From an uncultured Clostridia bacterium (lineage in GTDB: Bacteria > Bacillota > Clostridia > TANB77 > CAG-508), in assembly GCA_934119935.1 (NCBI GenBank), contig CAKOSX010000001.1:332299-396298 (forward strand): a stretch of DNA of 64,000 bases, read 5' to 3'. The notes under the pieces were generated by a model, which was not told where the DNA came from, searched no databases, and saw only the letters and a list, made by a program, of their open reading frames with translations. Shown in pieces: positions 5,798 through 31,170 of the stretch; positions within the stretch are counted from its first letter, which is position 1, and every line of letters starts with the position of its first letter. A program made the translations under genes and the position numbers.

Positions 5798-6679
5798 ATG
5801 GAAAAACAAGTTAAACTTTTTTTAGATTTTCTTAAAGATGATAAAAAATTATCAGACAATACACTTCAATCATACAGAAGAGATATAGAGCAATATGAAA
5901 AATACGTTTCAGAAAATAAAATAAATTATCTAAAAGCAACTGAAGAGACAATACTAGAATATATGGAATATTTAAGAGAAGAAAACAAAAAAGAGTCGAC
6001 CATTTCAAGAAGTTTAGCATCAATAAGATCTTTTTATCAATATTTAATTCGTATAAAAAAGATAAAAAAAGATCCAACGATGACAATAGAATCACCAAAA
6101 ATAAATAAAAGAACACCAAACATATTAACATCAAAGGAAGTTGAATTATTATTAGATCAACCTAAGGATGTTGATTTAAAAGGAACAAGAGATAAGGCAA
6201 TGCTTGAATTTGCATATGCAACAGGCATGAGAGTAACAGAAATGATATCGTTAAATATAGATGATGTAAGATTAGATGAAGGATATGTTGTATGCAGAGG
6301 CAGAACAAAATCTAGAAACATTCCTTTAGGTTCAATGTCATTAAAAGCATTAAAAGAATATATTGATGATGCAAGACCATATTTAATAAGAGACGAAGAA
6401 GAAGATGCTTTATTTGTCAATGTTAATGGAACAAGATTAACAAGACAAGGATTCTGGAAAATAGTAAAATACTATAAAGAACAAGCACACATAGAAAAAG
6501 ACATAACACCACACGTATTAAGACACTCTTTTGCAACACATTTATTACAAAATGGTGCTGACTTAAAAGCAATACAAACAATGCTTGGACACTCTGACAT
6601 ATCTTCAACACAAGTATACATGCAATTCCAAGATCCTGGAATAAAAAACGAATATAAAAAAGCTCATCCAAGAGCATAA
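5798..6679 (+). CDS. xerD: Tyrosine site-specific recombinase XerD/XerC family
   Basis: 293 aa; N-terminal SAM-like domain (LSDNTLQSYRRDIEQY); catalytic R..HVLRHSFATHLL..GHSDISSTQVY. Confidence 0.8.
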   Translation: MEKQVKLFLDFLKDDKKLSDNTLQSYRRDIEQYEKYVSENKINYLKATEETILEYMEYLREENKKESTISRSLASIRSFYQYLIRIKKIKKDPTMTIESPKINKRTPNILTSKEVELLLDQPKDVDLKGTRDKAMLEFAYATGMRVTEMISLNIDDVRLDEGYVVCRGRTKSRNIPLGSMSLKALKEYIDDARPYLIRDEEEDALFVNVNGTRLTRQGFWKIVKYYKEQAHIEKDITPHVLRHSFATHLLQNGADLKAIQTMLGHSDISSTQVYMQFQDPGIKNEYKKAHPRA

Positions 6680-6883: not shown

Positions 6884-6957
<74 letters not shown>

Positions 6958-6997: not shown

Positions 6998-7004
6998 GTA
7001 TAAA

Positions 7005-7085
7005 GGGAATCGAAAAGGAGGAATAGAAATTAGTCCAGTGGACTAATTTCCCGACGCGGCTCGGCGATTCCCGCTACCTGCTCCA
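7005..7085 (+). other. tRNA 3'-end mimic element, copy 1 (Gly-UCC type)
   Basis: gggaatcg-aaaaggaggaatagaaattaGTCCagtGGACtaatttcccgacgcggctcgg-CGATTCCCGCTACCTGCTCCA. The last 21 nt are identical to the 3' end of the adjacent tRNA including CCA. The 5' gggaatcg is the reverse complement of cgattccc. Confidence 0.7.
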
Positions 7086-7253
7086 AGATTGCGAACCCAT
7101 ATTGATATAGAGATATTTCAATATGGTGTTCTTTTTTTGTTAAAAGTAATAGTGCTAATAAATGTTTTTATTAGCTTTAGATAATGCATACGTATTAAAG
7201 TTATTCTAAACACAAGGGGGTACCAGGAAATTCCTGATACCTCCATTGTGTTG

Positions 7254-7568
7254 TTAATAACAACGAATATGCTCAGAGCAATTGTTGCACCCTAAAGCGC
7301 AACCAACACTTTCTTTTTGCAAAATTTCCAGACTGCATCTTTCGTTGGAAGCCTTTGATTCCTGACAGCTTCTGCAACGACATTTTTCTTTGCAGTAGCA
7401 CAGTTTACCTTCGGACAGAACCTGTTTTTTACACTGTTCTACAGCGCTTTCGGTATTACATGTGGGAAGAGAATAGTGCTGCTCGGAAATGCTGCTCTTA
7501 GGTGTTTTTTCCGGATTTTTCCGGGTTCCTACCTGTTGAACTTTGTTACGTTTTTTGTGCATAGACAT
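7254..7568 (-). CDS. Cys-rich small protein (104 aa) in GC-rich cassette
   Basis: Good RBS aaggagg; motifs CYCKEKCRCRSC and GCALGCNNC; locally high GC. Confidence 0.5.
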   Translation of the reverse strand: MSMHKKRNKVQQVGTRKNPEKTPKSSISEQHYSLPTCNTESAVEQCKKQVLSEGKLCYCKEKCRCRSCQESKASNERCSLEILQKESVGCALGCNNCSEHIRCY

Positions 7569-7794: not shown

Positions 7795-8256
7795 TTACTT
7801 CGCGGCGATATACATCTCCGTGAAGAGAAGGTTGCTCCGCAGCCAGACGACATAATTGTCGTCCTGCAGGAGGTGGATGCCCTTGTCGGCATCCTTTTTC
7901 AGCATATAGCTGTTGTCTGCCGTCACCCCCACATAGGGGATTTCAGAAGGAGCGTTCATATCATGCACCAAAATCACACGACCGGTGTCGTGGATCGGTT
8001 CATTGCTTACCATCTTATTCAGAAGATAGGCAAGCTTCATACCGAGATCCCCGGTGCTTAGCAGAACAGCGCTGATATAGCAACCGCCCTCGTGAACCTC
8101 GTTAGGTGCGTACCGCATATAGCGTGCACGTTTTCCAAACACTTCAAGGACTTCAGCTGCATTGTCTGCGACTTCTTCAGGAAAATTCTGAGTGAAACCC
8201 ATAATTTCCCGTTCGGGGCAAATGTCTGCTTTTGCAGACGTTTTGAATTTTGTCAT
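7795..8256 (-). CDS. Hypothetical protein (153 aa) in GC-rich cassette
   Basis: Intact ORF, GC about 50% versus about 30% background. Confidence 0.5.
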   Translation of the reverse strand: MTKFKTSAKADICPEREIMGFTQNFPEEVADNAAEVLEVFGKRARYMRYAPNEVHEGGCYISAVLLSTGDLGMKLAYLLNKMVSNEPIHDTGRVILVHDMNAPSEIPYVGVTADNSYMLKKDADKGIHLLQDDNYVVWLRSNLLFTEMYIAAK

Positions 8257-8462: not shown

Positions 8463-8536
8463 GCAGATGTAGTTTAGTGGTAGAACTTTGCCTTCCCAAG
8501 GCAATAGTGTGGGTTCGATTCCCATCATCTGCTCCA
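8463..8536 (+). tRNA. tRNA-Gly (anticodon CCC), CCA encoded
   Basis: Acceptor GCAGATG/CATCTGC; anticodon stem TTGCC/GGCAA; loop TTCCCAA. Confidence 0.9.
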
Positions 8537-8590
8537 GAATGAAAAGAGAAATTGGAGTTTTATATAACTTTAATTTTTTTCTTTTTATAA

Positions 8591-8671
8591 GGGAATCGAA
8601 AAGGAGGAGCAGAAATTAGTCCTGAGGACTAATTTCCCGACGCGGCTCGACGATTCCCATCATCTGCTCCA
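8591..8671 (+). other. tRNA 3'-end mimic element, copy 2 (Gly-CCC type)
   Basis: Same core as copy 1, but the 3' part is cgattcccATCATCTGCTCCA, matching the 3' end of tRNA-Gly(CCC) rather than Gly(UCC). Confidence 0.7.
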
Positions 8672-8726
8672 TAAAGTAAAAGAAAAATTAGAGCTTTTTT
8701 AAAACTTTAATTTTTTATTTTTTTGA

Positions 8727-8795
8727 GGCAATCGAAAAGGTGTAATAGAAATTAGTTTGGAAAATTAAATTTTCGATGTGGCTTGGCGATTTTCA
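8727..8795 (+). other. Degenerate third copy of tRNA 3'-end mimic element
   Basis: ggcaatcgaaaaggtgtaatagaaattagtttgg...gatgtggcttggcgattttcat; recognisably the same core but decayed. Confidence 0.5.
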
Positions 8796-8813
8796 TAGCA
8801 TATTCTATAATAT

Positions 8814-8842: not shown

Positions 8843-8919
8843 ATAAATAGTCCGAAAATTTTTTTTGTGAAACTCGGTAAGTCCTCCGAATTGAGAGGCA
8901 CGAGAAAAGGAGAGAGTAT

Positions 8920-9328
8920 TATGGCACACATTCTCGTAAACGCGTTCGCATTATCGATGCTTCCTCTGGAGGCTATGAATTTTGTTCGGGTGAAGAAGAT
9001 CAACCCGAATGAAGTTCCGGCAGACGTTGAATCTGCCATCGGCCATACGGACACTGCGAAAGTGGTGTCTGGCATCTTGGGTTTCGAGGTGAAGCCTAAC
9101 CGGGTTAGCATTAAGCTGACCGAGAGCGACGTCTTGTACGTTGCTCAGTACACTGGGCCGAGGCTGCCGGAGGGTGCAACCACCTTGCCGGAAGGCGCAA
9201 GCCTCGAGTTCTTCGAGGTCACCTTCCACAAGGAAGGATGCCGTGGATGCCATGGCTACGATTCTGGCACTTGCCAGAATTGTATCTTCAGCTTCTGGCT
9301 GAGCGGCGCTCCCATCATGGAGCGATAA
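8920..9328 (+). CDS. Hypothetical protein (136 aa) in high-GC (about 55%) cassette; possibly DUF1874-like
   Basis: ATG at 8920 with RBS aaaaggagagag preferred over the GTG at 8867 used by the ORF track; starts MAHILVNAFALSMLPLE. Confidence 0.55.
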
Positions 9329-21920: not shown

Positions 21921-22622
21921 TTAATGAAGGGTTTGCAGAGCGGCATAAACGCCATCGTTAACCACGATGAAATTGCTACCACAGTTAGGGTCGTACTCCG
22001 GCATGTCCGAGGCGTCTCCACTGTACGTAACTAGGTACTTGCCATCAAGGCGATACTGAAACTGGAATGGGTTTAAAAAGTAGTCCCAGTTTCTCCAGAC
22101 ATCCTGAGTAAGTACATTGGTAACAGTTGTGGTGACGCCTGCAGATTCTGCAAGTGCGTGGAACTTGTTGCTGTAGCCAGCAGTGAATCCAAAAACGAAC
22201 TTGTGGATTCCGCTTGGGAAATAGGTTTCCAAAACCTTCAAATTGAATTCGGGGTCGTAGTAGCTTCCATAGATAATGTTCGAAAGCTTGCGATACCGTT
22301 CTTCGAAGATTTCATACCTGTCCTGAGGGTATATACTCATAAGTTTGTTCGTAACGAACTCGTTAACCTGGAATCTAATCCAAAGGTCAAGTTTAATGTC
22401 GTTAAGAGTCTGCTCATGAGCAACGTCCTGGGGAAGAAGGTCAAGGCTTGCCTTGGTCTCTCCTAGCATGTAGCCAATCTGGTAACCAAGAGCATCATTG
22501 TTGTGTTCTGAGATGAACTCAGAAGATTTCAACTTGGTACGTGACAATTCACTGATTGCATCACGAACATTATACGTTGGATGCGTTATCTGTGTCGTGC
22601 CAGACCGTTTGTCCTCTTTCAT
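21921..22622 (-). CDS. Hypothetical protein (233 aa), high-GC foreign-looking gene next to tRNA-Gly
   Basis: Intact ORF, GC about 47%. Confidence 0.5.
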   Translation of the reverse strand: MKEDKRSGTTQITHPTYNVRDAISELSRTKLKSSEFISEHNNDALGYQIGYMLGETKASLDLLPQDVAHEQTLNDIKLDLWIRFQVNEFVTNKLMSIYPQDRYEIFEERYRKLSNIIYGSYYDPEFNLKVLETYFPSGIHKFVFGFTAGYSNKFHALAESAGVTTTVTNVLTQDVWRNWDYFLNPFQFQYRLDGKYLVTYSGDASDMPEYDPNCGSNFIVVNDGVYAALQTLH

Positions 22623-22755: not shown

Positions 22756-22830
<75 letters not shown>

Positions 22831-22999: not shown

Positions 23000-23737
23000 T
23001 TACCGCCACTTGCGGATAGATTCCCACTTTTTGCGGTACTCCTCATGCATAATCTTTTCGCCGCTAGAGAGAGGCACACGCATGCATTTCTCGTGGTATC
23101 CAGCGTCACGGAGATACTGGACAACTTTGTAGCCTCTGGTTACGTACGTATGACCATCACGGTATACGAACACTATAACGCCGTTGCTCATGTAATAGGT
23201 ACCAAGGTTTTCCTTGGTAAAGCCATCCATGCGGAAATTAACCAGCACGGGGTATGTGATACTTTCGTAACAAGTATACTTTACCCGAAGCCCTTCCATC
23301 GGAATCATGAGACTTTTTCTCATAACGACGGGACTCAAGGCTCCGATATGGTGTTCGTTGCAGAACTTTTCACATTCTGCCGAGAAGTTTTCTTCAGGAG
23401 TTTTTTTAGCCTTTTCCTGAAGATATTTCCAACGTTTTGCTTCACGCTTCGGACAATCCGAGGCAGAGAAGGGAACATAGAAATTAGCCTCTTTGAACGA
23501 ATTTTCCACGAGAGTAGCAATAGCCCGAGTTGTGTACGGAGCTACATAGTACTTGCTTTGGTGGATAAAACCTATAACCGTTGAGTTACTTACTGCGTAA
23601 CAGCCGTTGAATTTTTGTACAAAGAAATCCACGCTGAGTGTTACCTCATGCTTGGTGTCCTGGAAAACTGCTATCATTCCATGTGTGACACGGAATGAAT
23701 CGTGGATGAGATCGCCCAATGAATAAGTATTTGTCAT
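23000..23737 (-). CDS. Hypothetical protein (245 aa), high-GC
   Basis: Longer and more protein-like than the overlapping + strand ORF 22976..23584. Confidence 0.45.
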   Translation of the reverse strand: MTNTYSLGDLIHDSFRVTHGMIAVFQDTKHEVTLSVDFFVQKFNGCYAVSNSTVIGFIHQSKYYVAPYTTRAIATLVENSFKEANFYVPFSASDCPKREAKRWKYLQEKAKKTPEENFSAECEKFCNEHHIGALSPVVMRKSLMIPMEGLRVKYTCYESITYPVLVNFRMDGFTKENLGTYYMSNGVIVFVYRDGHTYVTRGYKVVQYLRDAGYHEKCMRVPLSSGEKIMHEEYRKKWESIRKWR

Positions 23738-29660: not shown

Positions 29661-30686
29661 ATGAAAAACATTGAAAGAAGACGGATGAATATGGTGAAAA
29701 CAAGCACCGGAGAAAGGGGAAGCCTGTGGCTTGAAAAACTAGCCATTCCTGAAACGGTAAAAGTTACTGTGAACGGTGAAAAAGTTGTTCCGGCAGGTTT
29801 CGATATTTACGGTCAGCCTTTTTTTACCAAAGAGCAGTGCAAGATGTTCGAGTTTAAGGAAGAAGAACTCAGAAGAGAAAAGAACGATAACAACTTTGAA
29901 TTGAAAGCAGAGGTCACGTACGAAGAAAGAATGTTTGACGTACCGAGAACCAACTTTGATTCGGTTAATGGCATTCAGGAATCTCTCCAGAGTTTGGATA
30001 CCTTAAGTAAGATGATCAAAAACCGGAAGATCTACCACAAAGCATATCCGAAGATTATGCTGAACGAGTTCGTTTTGTTCGGTTATATAAAACTCGAATG
30101 TGCTGGTGGAGTATCTTTTACAACAGACAGGACTCAATTCACTGCGGATATTGAGATATTTCAATATTTCAAGAACCGCAACGAGCAGACCTGTATGTTT
30201 GGTCAGTCTGCTTACACCATTCCGGCACCCCATTCGGTTTGCCCGTGCTGTGGACAAACTATCACAATTCATGATGTGAAAAACAACCCTTGTGTGAAGG
30301 TGCATGGTAAAGTATATCATGAAAGGTGCTGGCAGGAGTTCAGGAAGCTTTCTGAAATCGATTTTTTCACCAGCGTGATAAGTGGTACCTATTCCTTTAC
30401 GGAATATAAGTTTGATTTCAGGGAGAAGGAAGGAAAGGAGCCTTATTATTCCGAGGCGGTGTTCCACACTGTCGACGGAGACATAAAAATCAGTCGGTAT
30501 GGTGAATTCACGGAGGTCGAATGGCTGGACAACTACAAGCCTTTTGACCTGCGTCGAGTCATGAGAGAGCTGAATAAGGGTATTGCCACTGATGGAGAAA
30601 GAAAGGTGTTCTTCATCGAGGATTGCTGGAACAATGCACATGCGTGCATTTATAAAGCAAGAAAGGCGACCACACACACTGCATAA
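29661..30686 (+). CDS. Hypothetical protein (341 aa) with CPCC...H..C zinc-ribbon-like motif, high-GC cassette
   Basis: Strong RBS taggagg; GC about 45%; no recognisable family. Confidence 0.55.
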   Translation: MKNIERRRMNMVKTSTGERGSLWLEKLAIPETVKVTVNGEKVVPAGFDIYGQPFFTKEQCKMFEFKEEELRREKNDNNFELKAEVTYEERMFDVPRTNFDSVNGIQESLQSLDTLSKMIKNRKIYHKAYPKIMLNEFVLFGYIKLECAGGVSFTTDRTQFTADIEIFQYFKNRNEQTCMFGQSAYTIPAPHSVCPCCGQTITIHDVKNNPCVKVHGKVYHERCWQEFRKLSEIDFFTSVISGTYSFTEYKFDFREKEGKEPYYSEAVFHTVDGDIKISRYGEFTEVEWLDNYKPFDLRRVMRELNKGIATDGERKVFFIEDCWNNAHACIYKARKATTHTA

Positions 30687-30710
30687 AATCTGACAACCAA
30701 TTCAATGTTA

Positions 30711-30750
30711 CCCCCGCCCGGGACTCGTTCCTGGGTGGGGGCTTTTTAAT
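30711..30750 (+). terminator. GC-rich rho-independent terminator
   Basis: cccccgcccggga-ctcgt-tcctgggtggggg then CTTTTT. Confidence 0.75.
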
Positions 30751-30814
30751 AAAATATAGAATATATTTATTAAGGACAACAAAAAAAGTACTAATTATAA
30801 TTAGTATCTTACTT

Positions 30815-30896
30815 TGGTGCGGATGAAGGGACTTGACGAGCCACGTCGGGAAAACCGTCCACCGGACGCTTTTCTAATCCTCCTTTTCAAGTCCAC
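30815..30896 (-). other. tRNA 3'-end mimic element, copy 4 (Leu type)
   Basis: Reverse complement: gtggacttga-aaaggaggattagaaaagcGTCCggtGGACggttttcccgacgtggctcg-TCAAGTCCCTTCATCCGCACCA. The 3' 22 nt equal the 3' end of the adjacent tRNA-Leu. The 5' ggacttga is complementary to tcaagtcc. Confidence 0.7.
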
Positions 30897-30951
30897 AAAA
30901 ATTCTCAAAGGTAACAAAAAAAGATACCAATTATAAATTAGTATCTCATTC

Positions 30952-31035
30952 TGGTGCGGATGAAGGGACTTGAACCCCCACGTCGTTGACACTGGTTCCT
31001 AAGACCAGCGCGTCTGCCAATTCCGCCACATCCGC
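30952..31035 (-). tRNA. tRNA-Leu (anticodon UAG), long variable arm, CCA encoded
   Basis: Reverse complement GCGGATGTGGCGGAATTGGCAGACGCGCTGGTCTTAGGAACCAG...CATCCGCACCA; anticodon loop CTTAGGA. Confidence 0.9.
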
Positions 31036-31170
31036 ATATGTTATTTTTAACACTTAATTATAATAGCACAATAATGTTTTGATTGTCAAGTATAAAATTA
31101 AAAAAATATAAAATTTTATAACAAAATTTTAAAAGGCTTTTAAAGAGTAAAGTTTTATGATATACTTTAT

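Follow-up and report, generated by a model that had tools for sequence, protein, structure and literature searches.

What is the short DNA element that follows the tRNA-Leu(UAG) gene of an uncultured Clostridia bacterium, and why does it end like the gene beside it? The window analysed here is a whole 64-kb stretch of contig CAKOSX010000001.1 (64,000 nucleotides, nt; positions 332,299 to 396,298). In it the tRNA-Leu(UAG) gene lies on the minus strand at 30952..31035 (ARAGORN; Rfam tRNA, 56.8 bits), and the element follows on the same strand at 30815..30894, as defined by the sequence, by alignment and by a covariance model of its family (95.5 bits). A preliminary description had reported an 82-nt element behind the tRNA and its terminator. 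The element and a terminator-like hairpin (30914-30947) are indeed there, and the length was corrected to 80 nt. We conclude with high confidence that the element belongs to a composite repeat that is restricted to one lineage, measures about 80 nt per copy and lies behind the last tRNA or transfer-messenger RNA (tmRNA) gene of a unit; both kinds of gene are called t(m)RNA genes below. With the same high confidence, the parts of the repeat are a 7-9-nt 5' arm, the junction GAAAAGGAGGAnnA, an 11-bp hairpin (P2), the junction CCCGACGYGGCTCG plus one variable nucleotide N, and a tail that copies nt 56-76 of the gene. Helix P1 forms between the arm and the first 7-9 nt of the tail, the remaining ~13 nt of the tail are unpaired, and a terminator usually comes next; this too is held with high confidence.

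The Leu copy reads GGACTTG A-AAAGGAGGATTA GAAAAGCGTCC-GGT-GGACGGTTTTC CCGACGTGGCTCG-T CAAGTCCCTTCATCCGCACCA on the minus strand, to which all coordinates in this paragraph refer. Its arm GGACTTG (30888..30894) is the 5' strand of P1 and pairs with 30829-30835, as supported by covariation over 66 distinct copies, and A30887-T30836 makes an eighth pair in this copy. The 5' junction AAAAGGAGGATTA (30875..30887) aligns with the form GAAAAGGAGGAnnA that is invariant across the family, and which resembles a Shine-Dalgarno sequence without a usable start codon behind it. Hairpin P2, GAAAAGCGTCC / GGT / GGACGGTTTTC (30850..30874), has 11 pairs according to folding and covariation, and contains a G.G mismatch typical of the sub-lineage of this copy. 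The 3' junction CCGACGTGGCTCG, which alignment shows to be invariant except at a Y position, occupies 30836..30849 together with the variable N, the slot of tRNA position 55. The tail CAAGTCCCTTCATCCGCACCA (30815..30835) is an exact copy of tRNA-Leu nt 56-76 (30952-30972). Its first 7 nt are the 3' strand of P1, and its last 13-14 nt, which comprise the acceptor 3' strand, the discriminator and CCA, are predicted to be unpaired. Both sequence relations that had been proposed for this copy were borne out: the 22-nt TCAAGTCCCTTCATCCGCACCA, the shared 3' end, occurs exactly twice in the 64 kb, once in the tRNA and once in the element, with a match in 0 of 100 shuffles, and GGACTTGA at the 5' end (30887-30894) is the exact complement of TCAAGTCC at the start of the tail.

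The 57 nt between gene and element hold an AT-rich terminator-like hairpin with a T-run (about 30914-30947, minus strand), which belongs to tRNA-Leu and is also kept at an orthologous locus (L054; L numbers denote loci), followed by an AT-rich 19-nt spacer (30895-30913). A second terminator-like hairpin with a T-run lies behind the tail at about 30781-30810 (minus strand). With 34/40 positions shared, it is a diverged copy of the first hairpin, which means that tail and terminator together form the repeated block at this locus. A promoter scan found the strong promoter of tRNA-Leu(UAG) itself at 31060-31089 (TTGACA-18-TATTAT with an upstream TG) and no promoter-like site between the gene and the element.

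The two helices were evaluated on an alignment of 69 copies. In P1 and P2, 94.9% of the cells are paired, a level reached by 0 of 500 shuffles, and controls with slid strands gave 31-60%. One P1 pair occurs as all four Watson-Crick types (AU 24, UA 16, GC 13, CG 12), as does one P2 pair (AU 25, UA 23, CG 12, GC 6). Copies found later show compensatory changes even in otherwise invariant parts of P2, from GTCC/GGAC to GTCT/AGAC or GTTC/GAAC, and changes in the lower stem too. The P1 sequences are tRNA-derived (GGNNTYG/CRANNCC), and the junctions GAAAAGGAGGAnnA and CCCGACGYGGCTCG are invariant across the alignment. In two variants an additional perfect hairpin is inserted in the 5' junction, both times at the same point, and a third variant keeps arm, P2 and tail with different junctions. 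Both helices are almost purely Watson-Crick (724/10/6 in P1, 1103/0/2 in P2), and G.U is not enriched over A.C. Since there is no such excess, the pairing strand, be it RNA, single-stranded DNA or both, cannot be read from the sequence, and strand assignment by G.U against A.C counts was dropped as uninformative. Such helices agree with complementarity that is templated or arises at the DNA level no less well than with selection on RNA. Folding energies of single sequences were not significant.

How far the family extends was evaluated with two scans. The first, which used a 20-base core pattern on one genome per species, found 61 real loci, all of them in uncultured low-GC gut Clostridia, including Clostridium sp. 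CAG:245, UMGS1476 and Ca. Scatovivens, with metagenome-assembled genomes (MAGs) from human, rabbit, mouse and deer. Eight further pattern matches in high-GC taxa were rejected as chance matches. The second scan, a relaxed pattern on metagenome contigs, added about 80 loci, mostly from human gut; 159 copies (107 unique) were counted in 143 loci. The element thus recurs in related Clostridia. Every copy lies 11-58 nt downstream of a t(m)RNA gene or its 3' fragment, on the same strand, and in the operons Val-Asp-Phe, Met-Tyr and Gly-Cys a copy follows the last gene only. Among 98 distinct gene-element pairs there are 17 gene identities (Phe, Met, Tyr, Asn, Lys, Glu, Cys, Thr, two Gly, three Leu, three Arg and tmRNA) and 38 different 21-nt tails; one divergent Trp copy also exists. 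Across the family the tail corresponds to gene positions 56-76, and the nucleotide in the position-55 slot varies. At ssrA loci where the tmRNA T-loop has G57 for A57, tail and arm change alike, a three-way covariation. In some genomes all copies share one signature, such as a GGGT loop, whatever the tRNA. The family is real, its two ends are re-tailored to the neighbouring gene, and its core is strongly constrained, which agrees with the earlier proposal that arm and tail follow tRNA identity. One assembly, CAVFFR (L031, L032, L034, L040, L068), holds at least five elements in ~30% GC sequence with Clostridia-type tmRNA and tRNA loci, and its label Bacteroidaceae looks wrong.

Within the window the covariance model found exactly four copies, three intact (95-99 bits) and one decayed (46 bits), at 7003-7087 (+, 99 bits), 8589-8673 (+, 97 bits), 30813-30897 (-, 95.5 bits) and 8725-8809 (+, 46 bits). 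The three copies reported earlier behind tRNA-Gly(UCC) and tRNA-Gly(CCC) are among them. They had been said to share the same core as the Leu copy. This holds in the sense that they are clearly homologous by alignment, but not literally: they differ at variable hairpin positions, and the exact Leu core, at up to 3 mismatches, occurs in only one place in the window. The Gly(UCC)-type copy (7005..7085, +) begins 47 nt after its tRNA (6884-6957), and its downstream terminator is unrelated to that of the tRNA. The Gly(CCC)-type copy (8591..8671, +) begins 54 nt after its tRNA (8463-8536) and is part of an array whose third, tandem unit is the decayed copy (8727..8807, +, 46 bits). The decayed copy has a GC content of 0.32 versus ~0.50 in the intact ones, carries many C>T and G>A changes, has lost its CCA, and is also present in L029. 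It shows the fate of a copy without constraint. The third tRNA-Gly of the window (UCC, 22756-22830) has no element.

In about half of the pairs, identity between the gene's end and the element's end runs beyond CCA through the terminator and the spacer, up to 45/45, which makes the repeating unit a block of tail, terminator, spacer, arm and core of about 135 nt. Arrays of two or three such units occur, and the last unit is 5'-partial or decayed. A filled and an empty site could be compared directly: the window's Gly(UCC) locus is filled, its ortholog L069 is empty, and the difference between them is the element plus its own terminator. In this one locus pair the empty site keeps the proximal terminator and is without the distal one, so the proximal terminator is the native terminator of the tRNA. 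Insertion of a unit into the T-loop, as by a miniature integrative element, was considered and is contradicted by this empty site. Five copies (L072, L080, L149, the distal copy of L169 and the second of L086) are chimeric, with the arm of the local tRNA and the acceptor part of another tRNA joined after the common T-loop heptamer; they reflect either ectopic recombination through the 50-nt core or mis-assembly of metagenomes across the repeat. In L168 and L060 a terminator-like hairpin, GGAACTTA…TAAGTCCC with a T-run, stands just after the second spacer copy and resembles an arm/tail pair without a core. It may be a collapsed old unit, or the type of hairpin that gives rise to units.

Strong promoters were found at the tRNA genes, and none between gene and element. 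No positionally conserved -10 or -35 box that could make up a sigma-70 promoter of the element's own was found in the AT-rich spacer, and at most loci a terminator stands between the tRNA and the element. Coding potential was considered and rejected, as no start codon is suitably spaced behind the Shine-Dalgarno-like GGAGG and reading frames show no conservation.

The core is also found far outside the Clostridia. A BLAST search against plasmids matched the stretch AGGAGGA-P2-CCCGACG (about 41 nt) at 85-100% identity in 28 places on 22 alphaproteobacterial plasmids, from genera that include Paracoccus, Phaeobacter, Tritonibacter, Rhodovulum, Neorhizobium, Allorhizobium and Brucella. These copies are without arm, tail and tRNA. 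Such bare modules (plasmid loci L192-L196 and L199-L202, and viral contig L206) are mostly 41-48-nt insertions in transposase genes. In Paracoccus aminovorans an exact 45-nt in-frame insert lies in an IS110-family transposase gene, as seen by alignment to two uninterrupted relatives. Translation of the flanks showed other copies interrupting transposase genes of the IS3/IS407, IS481, IS5 and IS427 types or abutting the end of an insertion sequence (IS); at least five IS families have interrupted transposase genes. One copy lies in an intergenic gap of a cluster resembling a gene transfer agent or phage tail. In 5/5 co-oriented intragenic cases the host open reading frame (ORF) enters the module in one frame (…EDQKTVxxTVFPT…). 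By eye, no inverted repeats or target duplications consistently flank the bare modules, and searches of 50,697 phage records and of complete E. coli genomes found no match to the bare core. Short palindromic modules in ORFs, often frame-preserving, are also known as the Rickettsia palindromic elements and their like, but the bare module is only 41-48 nt long, sits mostly in transposase genes, is read in one frame wherever it is co-oriented and is shared with Firmicutes. The core is near-identical across the phyla, and its presence without a tail in another phylum shifts the emphasis toward a mobile module.

The DNA just past the elements is variable accessory sequence and a hot spot for accessory genes. 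When the ORFs downstream of all copies were clustered, no recurrent neighbouring protein family emerged. Integron-like cassettes were considered for this region and rejected, the inserts being an ordinary toxin-antitoxin pair and an orphan gene without boundary repeats. Prophages and islands enter the tRNA itself, and the classical attR, a partial tRNA, then stands upstream of the displaced terminator and element (L018, L024, L056, L203-205). In L018/L042 and L032 an integrase gene or its remnant directly adjoins the tail, and remnants occur in four loci only; in L018 and L134 islands are bracketed by a tRNA piece, spacer and element. No 3'-only remnants of split elements were found at the far ends of islands. 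In phage and viral collections the core was found only as host flank on prophage contigs. The island of L018, present also in L042, L169 and L180, is ~3.3 kb long, carries a pseudogenised tyrosine integrase and lies between one element and a 46-nt attR fragment of tRNA-Arg, which is followed by two more elements. An internal deletion explains why the integrase ORF of L018 seems to run over the element and the tRNA; in L042, where the gene is intact, it ends 65 nt short of the tail. In the IMG/VR database, contigs L203, L204 and L205 run past attR (partial tRNA-Thr or tRNA-Gly) into the host terminator and element, and their prophage boundaries are over-called.

What might such a family do? The reading that we rank first, and hold tentatively, is that the element is a non-autonomous, structure-dependent repeat that acts as a folded single strand, with the pairing of arm and tail as its specificity determinant. 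A protein encoded elsewhere and acting in trans would recognise the working strand, either single-stranded DNA or read-through RNA, by its invariant junctions. What moves horizontally, now or in the past, would be the hairpin core itself, and in these Clostridia it would be tied to t(m)RNA genes by base pairing of arm and tail across the conserved hairpin. In substrates of HUH transposases (IS200/IS605 type), guide and cleavage site pair across subterminal hairpins with the same topology. Units of ~135 nt would accumulate beside the gene, the gene-proximal one staying intact and matched and the distal ones decaying. This reading is placed first because of the cross-phylum insertions, the Watson-Crick-only stems, the decaying arrays, the presence/absence polymorphism and the genome-wide signatures. 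As there is no conserved neighbour gene and no mobile-element enzyme in the 64 kb, any enzyme would act in trans.

A number of results weigh against a mobile repeat. No transposase, HUH enzyme or recombinase linked to the element was found in the window or in the neighbourhoods of the copies, nor was a target-site duplication or clean insertion boundary, and repeats of the REP/RAYT type normally diverge between species. At 16 orthologous ssrA loci the element core has a mean pairwise identity of 93%, against 83% for the tmRNA and 62-64% for the flanks, and a core more conserved than tmRNA fits a host-selected function better than a purely selfish repeat. The same holds for the tail: in 48 pairs with unrelated terminators it is still 19.8/21 identical on average, so that tail matching is more than a by-product of recent duplication. 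At several loci only 11-22 nt, without a terminator, separate gene and element, which must be co-transcribed there, and a sense-strand terminator stands behind the tail in 99/123 copies (80%) versus 52/123 on the other strand. The constant co-orientation, the terminator-free loci and the sense terminators point to an RNA product. These observations lead to the explanation ranked second, possible but on balance unlikely, in which the element serves the host as a structured 3'-trailer RNA. A transcript of ~80 nt from the t(m)RNA promoter would use P1, P2 and the junctions as a protein scaffold and display the acceptor 3' strand with NCCA, acting as a 3'-end mimic: either a decoy or competitor for the enzymes of t(m)RNA 3' ends, or a pairing partner of the cognate 5' acceptor strand in the manner of an external guide sequence (EGS). 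The unvarying strand and position behind the last gene of a unit, the short terminator-free gaps, the excess of sense terminators, a core conservation above that of tmRNA and a tail kept at about 20/21 despite unrelated flanks all suit a trailer RNA, as do the optional extra hairpins at one junction position, which are common in RNA families, and the fast decay of an unconstrained copy. Against this stand the lack of a promoter of its own, the terminator before the element in most loci, the near absence of G.U pairs, the non-significant single-sequence folding energies, and the occurrence of the core within alphaproteobacterial protein-coding genes without tRNA context; a 13-nt unprotected 3' tail would also be trimmed by 3' exonucleases. 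The word mimic, used in the preliminary description, goes further than these results, in that it implies a function at the RNA level. The two explanations are not exclusive, as a mobile hairpin could have been domesticated.

Other explanations give the base pairing or the direct repeat a different role. Although we consider it rather improbable, the element may be the nucleic-acid part of a base-pairing-programmed system that works on the 3' ends of t(m)RNA genes. It would then be an insertion module that retargets itself by taking the template for arm and tail from whichever gene it lands behind, or one of a set of gene-specific guide RNAs, one per integration-prone t(m)RNA gene, that would steer a trans-encoded effector to the gene ends or to matching attP sites; the bare alphaproteobacterial core would be the same machinery on another class of mobile DNA. 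The guide RNA as an explanation by itself, a scaffold with a 21-nt 3' guide that directs a trans-encoded DNA-binding or DNA-cutting effector to t(m)RNA gene ends or attP sites for homing or for defence against integration, with P1 masking the seed until the target is engaged, seems to us improbable. The order of scaffold and guide and the 21-nt length match guides of the Cas12/TnpB type, tRNA 3' ends are homing targets of CRISPR-associated transposons (CASTs), there is one guide per integration-prone gene including tmRNA, and accessory genes concentrate just past the elements. However, neither the 64-kb window nor the neighbourhood of any of the ~160 copies holds an effector gene, the guide has its first 7-9 nt sequestered, it would match essential genes of its own host, and prophages sit in element-bearing tRNAs (L056, L024, L203-205), where integration is not visibly prevented. 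Even less probable is a scar or miniature of tRNA-integrating islands, akin to attL/attR repeats or cis-mobilizable elements (CIMEs), in which the tail would be an attR copy and an integrase-borne element would have contributed its conserved end as the core. Integrase-mediated insertion is typically recognised by direct repeats of t(m)RNA 3' ends, and both the integrase genes or remnants abutting the tail (L018/L042, L032) and the bracketed islands of L018 and L134 are in its favour; yet more than 90% of the loci hold just a terminator, a spacer and the 58-nt core between the repeats, the empty site keeps the proximal and not the distal terminator, the inverted arm is unexplained, prophages use the tRNA itself and merely displace the element, and the core is missing from phage and viral collections except as host flank. 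We give almost no credence to chance similarity, or to neutral decay after the tRNA 3' end had simply been duplicated in place. Tail and terminator are locally duplicated in about half of the loci, and to that extent tandem duplication occurs, but the 22-mer repeat never arises in shuffles, and the same 50-nt core stands between arm and tail in ~160 copies behind 17 genes, with covariation and strong constraint. The shuffles, the covariation, the constraint and the 98 pairs refute this explanation. The earlier judgement that the element is an organised entity rather than a chance duplication is upheld by the covariation (0/500 shuffles) and the constraint on the core, and the opposing scenario raised with it, tandem duplication followed by random decay of an unconserved core, does not describe a core so strongly constrained.

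None of the known kinds with which the element was compared is fully matched in its defining features, and we regard the element as new. tRNA models (ARAGORN, Rfam RF00005) called only the four true tRNAs of the window, a permissive Rfam scan of 30700-31100 was silent on the element, and no Rfam 15 family at E<=10 overlaps it meaningfully; a tRNA-like fold or a known RNA family was rejected on these negatives. No relevant paper was found in the literature, including 200 of the 408 supplement files of a human-microbiome structured-RNA survey. With the ends of IS200/IS605 elements and with repetitive extragenic palindromes (REPs) and REPINs it shares short multi-copy extragenic hairpins with strict Watson-Crick stems, near terminators and without an adjacent transposase, as well as genome-specific 'master' variants. 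The topology of arm, P2 and tail, with P1 spanning P2, recurs in IS608-type ends, where the cleavage or target site beyond a hairpin pairs with a short guide on its 5' side. In the element, however, the pairing is longer, 7-9 bp and not 3-4, and the arm pairs with sequence copied from the 3' end of the gene next to it; a GTAG motif, an inverted doublet, a known cleavage site and a nearby tnpA/RAYT are all missing. Whereas REPs are species-specific, the core is conserved across phyla. Of the REP/REPIN-RAYT features, the multi-copy extragenic Watson-Crick hairpin is present, and a RAYT (IS200-like tnpA) gene is absent from the window and from beside all copies.

Like attL/attR repeats and CIMEs, the element provides a second t(m)RNA 3' end, from T-loop to CCA, at the same genes including ssrA, with tandem accretion and adjoining islands; an exact 21-22-nt direct repeat of the t(m)RNA 3' segment is present in the 98 pairs. 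It differs in its structured core and inverted arm, and no integrated element lies between the repeats, just terminator, spacer and core. An empty att site should keep the distal flank, whereas L069, in the one locus pair, keeps the proximal one, and the true prophage attR fragments are separate and upstream of the element. The homing CRISPR RNAs of CASTs and the omega-RNAs of TnpB also combine a conserved scaffold with a variable 3' segment of ~20 nt that is identical to the 3' end of a tRNA gene and encoded next to its target. A scaffold and a variable segment matching a DNA target are present here as well, but the scaffold is only 58 nt, the seed is paired to the 5' arm, and a cas12k, tnpB or tns effector gene, a CRISPR repeat and a transposon end are absent in cis. 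RNase P EGSs and tRNA-like or minihelix mimics likewise present a single-stranded acceptor 3' strand with NCCA on a helix that might stack in the way of a T-stem, but the sole natural complement of the tail is the 5' strand of the cognate tRNA, there is no T-loop, D-arm or anticodon arm, and tRNA models stay silent. For integron attC sites, the R''/R' boxes with AAC/GTT, a cassette array and intI were not found; P1 is tRNA-derived and there are no cassette boundary repeats. Resemblances to the RNase P CR-I motif (GGAGGAAAGUCCGG), to Tn3-family inverted repeats and to K-turns were considered and set aside as too weak.

The 3' ends of tRNA and tmRNA genes are classic landing sites of prophages and genomic islands, and to our knowledge no conserved nucleic-acid element dedicated to them, on the host or the parasite side, has been described. 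The family combines a conserved scaffold with two programmable segments that in every case fit the adjacent gene, a design shared with guide RNAs and guide-dependent transposon ends and realised here in as little as 80 nt. If mobile, the element would be among the smallest site-specific elements known, with targets chosen by base pairing; should it be an RNA that serves the host, it would represent a new class of tRNA-linked regulators in abundant uncultured gut bacteria. Transposase genes of another phylum contain a near-identical core, which is an unexpected cross-phylum link. In practice, the repeats cause chimeric joins and displaced att sites, which can mislead the analysis of prophage boundaries and MAGs.

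The window is otherwise ordinary chromosome, with tmcAL-like, coaE, murB, holA, gpr, rsmF, hsp33 and recG genes and a gene for a XerD-type recombinase beside spoIIM; it has no transposase, reverse transcriptase, Cas/TnpB or HUH gene. The XerD-type tyrosine recombinase gene (5798-6679, +), the sole recombinase near any element of the window, adjoins spoIIM and lies directly upstream of tRNA-Gly(UCC), a synteny repeated in L134 and L069, and is probably a housekeeping gene. Small genes of higher GC content lie between and after the two tRNA-Gly/element loci (7254-7568, -; 7795-8256, -; 8867-9328, +), and the last has a weak match to a STIV B116-like (viral) domain. Two orphan genes (21921-22622, -, and 23000-23737, -), with a GC content of about 0.41 and no Pfam match, flank the element-free tRNA-Gly(UCC), so that accessory DNA collects at tRNA genes here with or without the element. 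An orphan gene for a 341-aa product (29661-30686, +), which has a very GC-rich terminator (30711-30741), runs towards the Leu element in convergent orientation; its GC content is 0.42 in a 0.31 genome, and it has no Pfam match. In the related genome of L054 only a 3' stub of this gene is left, and a ParE/RelE-like toxin-antitoxin pair is inserted directly after the terminator of the element.

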